Shown piece after piece: positions 48,187-48,866 of a stretch of DNA of 64,000 nt. The stretch is taken from IMG/VR virus record IMGVR_UViG_3300044843_001063. One strand, written 5' to 3'. Every line of letters begins with the position of its first letter. Position 1 is the first letter of the stretch. The notes under the pieces are model-generated. The model was not told where the DNA came from. It searched no databases and was given only the letters and a program-made list of their open reading frames with translations. The stretch comes from an uncultured virus (IMG/VR IMGVR_UViG_3300044843_001063). Its lineage: Duplodnaviria > Heunggongvirae > Uroviricota > Caudoviricetes. A program made the position numbers and the translations under genes.

Positions 48187-48537
48187 ATGCATTATTTAAA
48201 TAGCCATAAATCTAAATTATTATTAATTAGTCAAATTAACGGACTAACTTTAACCTCTAAAAAGAATAAAAGAAAACTGATCAAAGCTAAAACTGTTTCT
48301 AATCAAGGCTTTTTCTGTTCGGAAAAAAGATATATTAAAAAAATAATTCGTCATTATTTATTAGCTTATGCGTTTTTAGAACAAAAATCATATAAATCAG
48401 TAGAGAGAAGCTGTAAAGAACAACCCTCTGCTTCCGAAATATTTGAAATAATTAAACAATTAGGCTTGGTCAAAAATAATAATATTTCTCAACAATCCAT
48501 CCAACAATGGATGTCGAAATCGGAGGAAAATATATGA
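48187..48537 (+). CDS. hypothetical basic protein upstream of Pth2-like gene
   Basis: SD AGGAG; RHYLLAYAFL..KSYKSVE. Confidence 0.7.
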   Translation: MHYLNSHKSKLLLISQINGLTLTSKKNKRKLIKAKTVSNQGFFCSEKRYIKKIIRHYLLAYAFLEQKSYKSVERSCKEQPSASEIFEIIKQLGLVKNNNISQQSIQQWMSKSEENI

Positions 48538-48866
48538 GTTATTAGATCCGACCGACCGATAAATTGTATATTATTATTCGCACTGATTTGACTCCAGGTC
48601 AAAAATTAGCTCAAGCTTGTCATGTAGCTTTTTCTTTCTGTCAAGAAAATCAGGAAGTTACTCATCATTGGATAAATATTTCTAATTATATCTGCCTCTT
48701 AGAATCTAATAATATCGAACATTTATTTGATCAAGCTAAAATGTGGAACATTAAATGTTCCTCTTTTAGAGAGCCAGATTTAGATTATATGATGACGGCA
48801 TTAGCCTTAGAACCTGGACCACTAACTAAAAAATTGTGTAATAAACTACCATTAGCTCTCAAATAG
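48534..48866 (+). CDS. peptidyl-tRNA hydrolase 2 (Pth2)-like protein with in-frame TAG at codon 4
   Basis: KLYIIIRTDLTPGQKLAQACH..FREPDL..TALALEP..LPL; GGAGG SD and ATGA overlap at 48534. Confidence 0.8.

Follow-up and report, generated by a model that had tools for sequence, protein, structure and literature searches.

In this study we analysed 64,000 nucleotides of DNA from an uncultured virus of the Caudoviricetes (IMG/VR record IMGVR_UViG_3300044843_001063). This stretch, hereafter the window, is 64 kb of a 259-kb contig, about 195 kb of which lie outside the scope of the window searches. Our subject is a gene for a Pth2-like (peptidyl-tRNA hydrolase-like) protein that carries an in-frame amber codon, TAG, as its fourth codon. 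We found that the same arrangement, a start codon followed after a few codons by TAG and then by an intact coding region, recurs in divergent homologues, and it appears from their sequences to be typical of Pth2-like genes in AT-rich jumbo and huge phages. We refer to it as the amber gate. The TAG of the window is probably its copy of this conserved gate, and synthesis of the Pth2-like protein would then depend on the decoding of UAG, mainly by a suppressor tRNA of the phage.

Results

An amber codon near the start of the Pth2-like gene

The original prediction, made from the letters of the window, described a Shine-Dalgarno (SD) core followed by an ATG that overlaps the stop codon of the upstream open reading frame (ORF), and by M-S-Y-TAG in frame with a Pth2 domain. 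The sequence is as described (Table 1). The TGA of the upstream 116-residue ORF (48535-48537) and the gate ATG (48534-48536) overlap in the form ATGA, and the codons after the amber, ATC CGA CCG ACC GAT AAA TTG TAT ATT, run in frame into the 100-residue ORF 48564-48866. An SD core followed by ATG, up to eight codons, TAG and at least 80 open codons is found at a single place in the window, the Pth2-like gene; within the window, the gate pattern at this gene is more than chance.

The TAG at 48543-48545 is present, with no differing letter across it, in contigs of all four of four public lake-water runs, each from a different study (X10 48029-48930; X11 48194-48600; X12 48247-48561; X5 48348-50000), these being Logan contigs of depth 2-6, from which rare variants can be dropped and in which stretches without cover (in X11 and X12) carry no meaning. 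This finding refutes a sequencing error. The protein database holds only the TTG-started form of 100 residues, on 8 and 6 contigs, the longest of 259,050 bp.

Other uses of TAG in the window had also been singled out. TAG was said to be a true stop elsewhere, and TAG 7600-7602 indeed ends ORF 7051-7602. The proposed match between the TAG-AT context of the gate and that of a leader stop upstream was rejected: the leader stop is real (ATG 48090 ... TAG 48108-48110, then AT), but the link is a two-base coincidence. The frame behind this leader TAG closes again before the next gene. At the other end of the Pth2-like gene the sequence reads TAG-A, and the next in-frame stop lies 12 codons on, across the start of the IF3 gene. 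If UAG is suppressed, the protein would carry a 12-residue tail and ribosomes would overrun the IF3 start codon.

The product is Pth2-like by sequence and fold

The product expected upon read-through matches Pfam PTH2 (PF01981) over residues 10-97 (profile 2-102 of 115; E = 8e-6; 26.5 bits against a cut-off of 23). The match opens at K10; thus, the start used by gene callers, TTG 48564, which has no SD core, loses only the K of KLY, as had been predicted. A profile of 26 homologues matches solved Pth2 chains (2zv3, E = 5.6e-10; 1q7s, E = 3.2e-8). Moreover, an AlphaFold2 model on 26 homologues (pLDDT 96.8, pTM 0.88) was compared with the PDB by Foldseek and matched 1q7s (Bit1) at a TM-score of 0.82, and also 2zv3, 1wn2, 3erj and 1xty; there were 13 matches at E<=0.001, and all those listed are Pth2 or Pth2-like proteins of unknown function.

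The family keeps AQxxH, an acidic residue (E/D of FREPD) and a Thr, and all family-invariant residues are intact in the window gene. The catalytic residues of archaeal and human Pth2 are the Lys of a G-K motif, an Asp and a Thr. The HMMER alignment to 2zv3 places a two-residue deletion before the motif and aligns the canonical Lys with a variable position; hence, we call the protein Pth2-like. It is Pth2-like by sequence and modelled fold, and its hydrolase activity is a prediction. The nearest relative shares 56% identity with it.

The gate is conserved among divergent Pth2-like genes

Homologous loci were retrieved with peptide words from inside the domain, drawn from a 5-sequence alignment, a procedure that is blind to the N-terminus. 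As a single query, the window protein had no match in viral contigs, and the peptide patterns of the alignment found no relative in one genome per prokaryote species. The collection comprised 21 metagenome loci, eight IMG/VR loci and four GenBank huge-phage genomes (LR745206.1, LR756504.1, LR756501.1 and LR756500.1). Once duplicates were merged (L009=L010=L013=L025, L018=L027, L017~L021), there were 29 distinct loci, window included.

ATG, a few codons and TAG stand directly before the (D)K-L-Y start of the domain, and in frame with it, in 18 of these 29 loci. The gated loci span 34-56% protein identity and include the four huge-phage genomes (462-735 kb). The alignment that the original prediction had proposed, of the regions upstream of phage Pth2-like genes in search of ATG-x-x-stop, thus gives a strongly positive result, and a private nonsense mutation is refuted. 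The TAG lies 2 codons from the ATG in 11 loci, 3 in six and 6 in one (L006). In all 18 the stop is TAG and in none TAA or TGA, although no more than 2-12% of the ORFs in the genomes concerned end in TAG. This conserved architecture and the exclusive use of TAG are direct observations. The next base is always a purine (A in 15, G in 3), the codon before the TAG is TCG in seven of the 18 despite their AT-rich genomes, and the codon after it is ATT or ATC in ten. An SD core of at least 4 nt is found 4-11 nt before the gate ATG in 11 gated loci. The frame before the TAG is open for 3-41 codons in 15 loci, where the gate TAG is not the terminator of an upstream gene; it is open for 64-277 codons in L005, L007 and L009, where the TAG may also serve as such a terminator.

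In all 17 gated relatives, the first ATG, GTG or TTG that follows the TAG falls within the domain, 3-63 codons in. With no canonical start at or before the domain, a full domain, including its conserved first strand, needs the TAG to be decoded in these genes.

All 11 loci without the gate have a GC content of at least 0.45, one of them (L029) being only a partial match. A maximum-likelihood tree was built from 27 rows, leaving out the duplicates L010, L013, L021, L025 and L027 and the truncated L007 and L029. On this tree, whose median terminal branch is 0.6 changes per site, the gated state changes once, and none of 500 label shuffles gave so low a count. Since the gate has been kept through deep divergence, a codon that is one mutation away from eight sense codons must be under selection.

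A stop at codon 4 resembles an inactivating mutation, and the gene could in principle be dead, either through a nonsense mutation or through an error of assembly. This reading is hardly credible: the TAG recurs in four of four runs and is common to 17 divergent relatives, whereas the body of the gene is intact at 56% identity, keeps the invariant residues and has a confident fold.

Some further in-frame ambers came to light in these loci. In the Pth2-like gene of the 735-kb phage LR756501.1 (L068 2992-3360), codon 37 is another in-frame TAG, at a position where relatives mostly have Glu. Other candidates for an M-x-TAG start are L024 5583, with an ATG directly after it, and L010 3792; the window homologue of the latter gene starts at GTG without a TAG. 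In the 'MSQIK' of P0002, the Q may stand for a TAG that a code-15 gene caller translated.

A second gated family

An HD-like gene that stands beside the Pth2-like gene starts with M-x(-x)-TAG in four of five distinct loci (L001 575-1159; L024 2041-2613; the L010 group, L010 937-1521; LR745206.1, about 339.18-339.73 kb), and not in L006. This family (phrog_14850) has no Pfam family and gives a weak match to an A-adding/CCA-enzyme structure (3wfp, E 0.05). The window contains no homologue of it. The presence of the same gate before the HD-like family indicates that the gate is a device rather than a quirk of one gene.

Suppressor tRNA genes and the genetic code

As suggested by the original prediction, we searched for tRNAs with a CTA anticodon. 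Of the 15 gated loci with 1 kb or more of downstream sequence, 10 have a tRNA(CUA) called by ARAGORN on the strand of the gene and 32 nt to 2.4 kb downstream of it (L001, L002, L003 with two, L004, L022, L023, L024, L028, L068 with two, and L069). Such a tRNA thus lies within 3 kb of the gene in these relatives; none was found in the 64 kb of the window, as described below. This linkage, too, is directly observed. The anticodon loops read CUCUAAA in most cases. The genomes concerned are G001, G002, G003, G005, LR756501.1 and LR756500.1, and in G002 the tRNA(CUA) is the sole tRNA in 56 kb. Behind the ungated genes of L011 and L012, too, there is a tRNA(CUA). The claim that full-length enzyme is made only on read-through needs to be divided: the 17 relatives do need the TAG decoded, but the likely decoder in most of them is the tRNA(CUA) and not spontaneous read-through.

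The gated genomes otherwise read as standard code, with no general recoding. ORF coverage in code 11 and with TAG as sense is 0.920/0.930 in the window, 0.913/0.916 in G001, 0.942/0.944 in G002, 0.935/0.933 in G003, 0.877/0.895 in G005 and 0.898/0.907 in LR745206.1. Given a standard code elsewhere and a gate next to them, the tRNA(CUA) genes have a visible target at their side. On the other hand, code 15 could apply throughout, the gate being one of many in-frame TAGs. Relatives carry tRNA(CUA), a homologue is present in the Lak phages with their code 15, and the gene of the 735-kb phage contains its second internal TAG. However, TAG as sense adds only 1% to the 92% of the window covered in code 11, frames in which two pieces of at least 60 codons are joined by a stop number 3 for TAG against 4 for TGA and 11 for TAA, and TAG ends 8 of 93 window ORFs. 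Moreover, the TAG of gated genes sits at one fixed place and is not scattered. We rejected code 15 for the window on coding coverage, joined-frame counts and TAG terminators, and regard the reading as highly improbable.

Several other tRNAs near Pth2-like genes deserve mention. The two tRNA(CTA) genes of L068 are found 2.1 kb downstream of its Pth2-like gene. The suppressor tRNA of G005 (L028 3606-3681) shares 82.5% identity, over 57 nt, with tRNA-Trp genes from Aeromonas phages, which may be a weak hint at its ancestry; a distant blastn search with the L028 locus matched tRNAs only. GC-rich Pth2-like loci adjoin tRNAs called Ile(aat), with loops of the form ..GUAAUGA.., which lie directly upstream (L014 602-755; L016 2773-2972; L018 2869-2945; L020 836-1035; L026 2776-2850) or, in L029, downstream (3332-3406). 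To our knowledge, a tRNA-Ile with A34 is unusual for bacteria and phages.

What sets the window apart

A number of findings weigh against a gate that is read by a linked suppressor, most of them in the window itself. No tRNA(CUA) was found in its 64 kb, positions 44500-53800 gave no tRNA-like match at E<=1, and the syntenic tRNA slot is only 10 nt long. The window gene is the sole one of the 18 gated genes with a canonical start, TTG, at the domain edge, and also the sole one to end in TAG, as 0 of 16 gated relatives do. Its rate of TAG terminators (8/93 ORFs) is like that of the suppressor-less LR745206.1 (65/796) and differs from that of three AT-rich suppressor-bearing contigs (11/380; Fisher p 0.019). 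Elsewhere in the family, the complete and gated LR745206.1 (634,780 bp) has no suppressor-type tRNA among its 59-61 tRNAs, and the only CUA-containing candidate in the tRNA regions of LR756504.1 is a tRNA with an 8-nt loop, AUUCUAAC (L088 c346-421; ARAGORN 'tcta'). Finally, the branch that separates gated from plain loci in the tree is poorly supported (22/0). The gate of LR745206.1 implies that the decoder need not be a phage tRNA(CUA) in every case, and G004, a 65-kb fragment, lacks tRNAs altogether. With a relaxed threshold (80%), ARAGORN made 31 calls in the window, mostly inside coding genes, with one 'cta' in a TnpB gene; we treated these as false.

The gate could therefore be a relic in the window, the protein being made from TTG 48564. 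Ribosomes would probably load at the SD and ATG 48534, stop at UAG after three codons and re-initiate 18 nt downstream, and the amber codon would only lower the yield. This is a serious alternative, though the less likely one. The TTG falls exactly on the Leu that opens the domain, where the other 17 genes use TTA or CTN, and these genes lack a start before domain residue 3-63. Some homologues, furthermore, begin one residue earlier than this Leu, at MKLY, and TTG is the start chosen by gene callers on all the database contigs mentioned above. The missing tRNA, the short slot, the terminal TAG and the terminator usage point the same way. In contrast, TTG makes up 13% of the Leu codons of the window and may be there by chance; the avoidance of a terminal TAG by all 16 relatives, itself to be expected in 26-61% of cases, is not significant alone. 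No SD core lies in the 20 bases before the TTG; since only 22 of 84 window ORFs have such a core, its absence argues little. Besides, the window, like its relatives, keeps every element of the arrangement (SD, ATG, TAG and six following sense codons), and 195 kb of the genome lie beyond the examined window. LR745206.1 keeps two gated genes with neither a detectable suppressor nor a nearby start, so that suppressor-independent reading of the gate must exist somewhere in the family.

The dismissal of the TTG start in the original prediction does not hold, given that this is the only domain-edge start among the gated genes, that no suppressor tRNA is visible and that SD use is low genome-wide. 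The window may represent a lineage that has retained the ancestral gate and relaxed its dependence on a linked suppressor. For the phage of the window, we would give UAG decoding a chance of roughly one half of still being the main route, and (re-)initiation at TTG about one third, the rest falling to both routes together.

Genomic context

The window has a GC content of 34% and a gene content in the style of jumbo phages. Genes for RNA repair include RlaP, PNKP, an Rnl1-like ligase and a Thg1-like enzyme; tmRNA, IF3, two ClpP, a PARP-like protein, TnpB proteins and an FtsK/HerA ATPase are also encoded, and there is one tRNA, tRNA-Arg(UCU). The block around the gate is syntenic with L002, L003, L004 and L023, in the order upstream ORF, Pth2-like gene, [tRNA(CUA)], IF3, RmlA-like and RmlD-like genes, with the Thg1-like gene upstream. 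The upstream gene of L002 matches window positions 48196-48507 (tblastn, 37% identity, E 8e-19).

Table 1. Features of the gated Pth2-like gene and its surroundings in the window
Feature	Position	Strand	Remarks
Thg1-like tRNA-His guanylyltransferase	44981..45754	+	syntenic with L002 and L022
tmRNA	45848..46203	+	Rfam RF00023, 62.9 bits against 47; between the Thg1-like gene and the Pth2-like/IF3 block
Upstream 116-residue ORF	48187..48537	+	no Pfam family; same position in relatives
SD core GGAGG	48522..48526	+	7-nt spacer before ATG 48534
Gate ATG AGT TAT TAG (M-S-Y-amber)	48534..48545	+	amber 48543-48545, next base A
Six sense codons I-R-P-T-D-K, amber to domain	48546..48563	+	homologous to I-K-x-G-D-K / N-D-K in relatives
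TTG, Leu of KLY	48564..48566	+	start of gene callers; possible internal or re-initiation start
Pth2-fold domain, 100 codons	48564..48866	+	terminal TAG 48864-48866
Gap of 10 nt	48867..48876		slot of tRNA(CUA) in relatives, between the Pth2-like and IF3 / RmlA-like / RmlD-like genes
IF3 (Pfam IF3_N + IF3_C)	48877..49410	+	syntenic neighbour; also in L002

The tmRNA was not reported by ARAGORN at default settings. Farther away, we noted a PARP-like protein with WGR, PARP regulatory and PARP catalytic domains (3050-4525) and a BRCT-domain protein (173-466), as well as two arrays of small paralogous genes (7051-12158 and 25801-28440) with weak partial matches to DUF6745. Three TnpB/OrfB_IS605 genes with a Cas12f-like TNB domain occur in the 64 kb (14146-15294, 34853-36013 and, on the minus strand, 57735-58952). 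Endonuclease genes of the GIY-YIG (22729-23535) and LAGLIDADG (38539-39348) types, both on the minus strand, are antisense to their neighbours.

Discussion

Our results point to a translational switch at the start of Pth2-like genes. Ribosomes would load at ATG 48534, aided by GGAGG and by coupling to the overlapping stop of the upstream ORF, and would reach the UAG after two elongation steps. At this codon, termination or drop-off would yield a tripeptide, or else a UAG-reading tRNA would decode the codon and permit synthesis of the complete enzyme. The decoder in most relatives would be the phage tRNA(CUA) encoded just downstream. We infer that this tRNA reads the gate and that the enzyme is made only under suppression. 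Synthesis of the Pth2-like enzyme and of the likewise gated HD-like tRNA-end enzyme would thus be confined to times of active amber suppression and would scale with it. In the phage of the window, TTG 48564 may offer a route that is independent of the suppressor.

As to the purpose of the gate, we can only speculate. It might match peptidyl-tRNA rescue to the stalling or drop-off that results from suppression or from failing RF1 termination; the enzyme might feed back on the suppressor; or the gate might set the timing of expression. The strict placement within 2-3 codons suggests that a very short nascent chain may matter and that failure would thereby be made cheap.

The gate might also act as a read-through sensor without any dedicated suppressor, UAG being read through at a low frequency, increased by slow RF1-dependent termination, with a logic similar to that of RF2, the analogy drawn in the original prediction. 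Gated genes are indeed present in a complete genome without a suppressor-type tRNA and in the 65-kb contig without any tRNA. Release at very short ORFs (minigenes) is inefficient, and all but one of the 18 loci hold the TAG 2-3 codons from the ATG, a constraint that plain gating by a suppressor does not need. Nevertheless, a cognate decoder is the better fit to the tight linkage with tRNA(CUA) (10 of 15 loci) and to the use of TAG alone, and no stimulatory structure was found, the RNA fold around the gate being no more stable than that of shuffled sequences (z -0.21). We consider a sensor of this kind unlikely.

Still less likely is that the SD-ATG-x-x-TAG unit matters as a minigene, whose dropped-off short peptidyl-tRNA would be a substrate for the Pth-like enzyme or would titrate a rare tRNA. 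The original prediction had raised the first of these roles. The gene that encodes the Pth2 fold is preceded by an ORF of two to three codons, which has an SD in 11 of the 18 loci and, despite the AT-rich genomes, TCG as its last sense codon in 7 of them. However, the same gate precedes the unrelated HD-like gene, the use of TAG alone and the linkage to tRNA(CUA) are left unexplained, and drop-off provides no route to synthesis of the domain.

Having weighed these alternatives, we return to the decoding of the gate by a suppressor, which lends itself to a broader formulation. The suppressor tRNA(CUA) of standard-code jumbo and huge phages may target the gates of adjacent tRNA-rescue genes (Pth2-like and HD-like) as an amber regulon. 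Such a circuit would sense the reading of UAG, by the suppressor versus RF1, and set the rescue capacity, and the module could be a seed of code 15. The window would then be leaving the circuit, with the tRNA slot lost, a TTG gained and a TAG terminator back. We offer this extension tentatively, as quite possible but short of probable.

The significance of the gate lies mainly in the target that it supplies. Suppressor tRNAs of phages with standard-code genomes had no known targets, and a fixed amber in a neighbouring gene is a concrete and testable one. Together, gate and tRNA form a minimal, portable translational switch, and the gate is a plausible first step toward whole-genome reassignment of a stop codon in phages. 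In addition, gene callers that use code 11 mis-start or truncate gated genes, as seen here in the 100-residue protein annotated from TTG.

As a form of regulation by stop-codon recoding, the gate is apparently undescribed. Among the main texts of the open full-text literature, we found no account of phage Pth2 genes with an amber codon at their start. PTH2 and IF3 have been reported in jumbo phages (Iyer et al., PMC7824862) and PTH2-like genes in the tRNA arrays of cluster C mycobacteriophages (PMC5966550); these genes belong to the same family and to the same translation and RNA-repair neighbourhood (IF3, Thg1, tmRNA, tRNAs). In the open text of both articles the word 'suppressor' occurs 0 times, and neither text mentions a link to suppressor tRNAs or an in-frame stop. 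In the text on Atu_ph07, an opal (UCA) suppressor tRNA is listed along with two putative peptidyl-tRNA hydrolases, and no link is drawn between them (PMC6102473). As far as their main texts go, a jumbo-phage survey contains neither 'peptidyl-tRNA hydrolase' nor 'in-frame' (0 occurrences; PMC13037316), and Al-Shayeb et al. (PMC7162821) contain neither 'suppressor' nor 'hydrolase' (0 each).

The gate was not found among the cultured phages examined (XacN1, PTm1 and Bxz1). Bxz1 gp154 is ungated and has a GTG start, directly after an ATG-TAG, and a 'tRNA-OTHER' with anticodon CTA follows 306 nt downstream of it (L130 3157-3229). Tenacibaculum phage PTm1 gave no match to the Pth2-like protein or to PF01981. 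There were also tblastn matches in Tenacibaculum, Stenotrophomonas, Salmonella and Xoo-sp13 phages. The TAG-recoded megaphages Lak-A1 and Lak-B5 have a tRNA(UUA), of the ochre-suppressor type, about 0.7 kb upstream of their ungated homologue (L128 1739-1811; L129 1847-1919).

A closer parallel is found in the code-15 phages of Borges et al. (bioRxiv 10.1101/2021.08.26.457843), whose text proposes regulation of late genes by TAG recoding and describes code-change modules composed of suppressor tRNA, aminoacyl-tRNA synthetase and release factor; 'hydrolase' and 'N-termin' have 0 occurrences in its main text. As in those phages, a phage suppressor tRNA would make in-frame stops readable and genes would be held back until suppression is on; TAG is also depleted as a terminator in our AT-rich relatives. 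In the code-15 phages, however, structural and lysis genes contain many scattered TAGs and the coding density collapses when read in code 11, whereas the gated genomes read as code 11 and the TAG is single and held at codon 3-4 (codon 7 in one locus) in one or two tRNA-related genes beside the tRNA.

The Xanthomonas jumbo phage XacN1 uses the standard code and has CUA suppressors without identifiable targets; according to the available text, its authors read through 18 TAG gene ends and found none (PMC5852040). XacN1 resembles the gated phages as a jumbo phage of standard code with tRNA arrays, Thg1, PNKP, Pth and tRNA(CUA) genes. A gate at gene starts is invisible to a read-through test at gene ends. 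The Pth2-like domain of XacN1 itself is the C-terminal part of ORF364 and is ungated.

Two classical systems help to place the gate. RF2 (prfB) regulates its own synthesis through an early in-frame stop, which has to be passed by a +1 frameshift and is recognised by the product. The gate likewise sets an early in-frame stop in a termination or rescue gene, and synthesis would depend on how that stop is read; unlike in prfB, the frame is left unchanged, and feedback by the Pth2-like protein would be a matter of analogy only. The bar minigenes of phage lambda cause drop-off of peptidyl-tRNA in Pth-deficient cells. They too are ORFs of only two to three codons that follow a ribosome-binding site, frequently with a rare last sense codon, and ATG AGT TAT TAG behind GGAGG is a bar-like ORF in the sense of two to four codons with a ribosome-binding site. 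The bar minigenes stand alone, whereas that of the gate is fused in frame to a conserved coding region and always has TAG as its stop.

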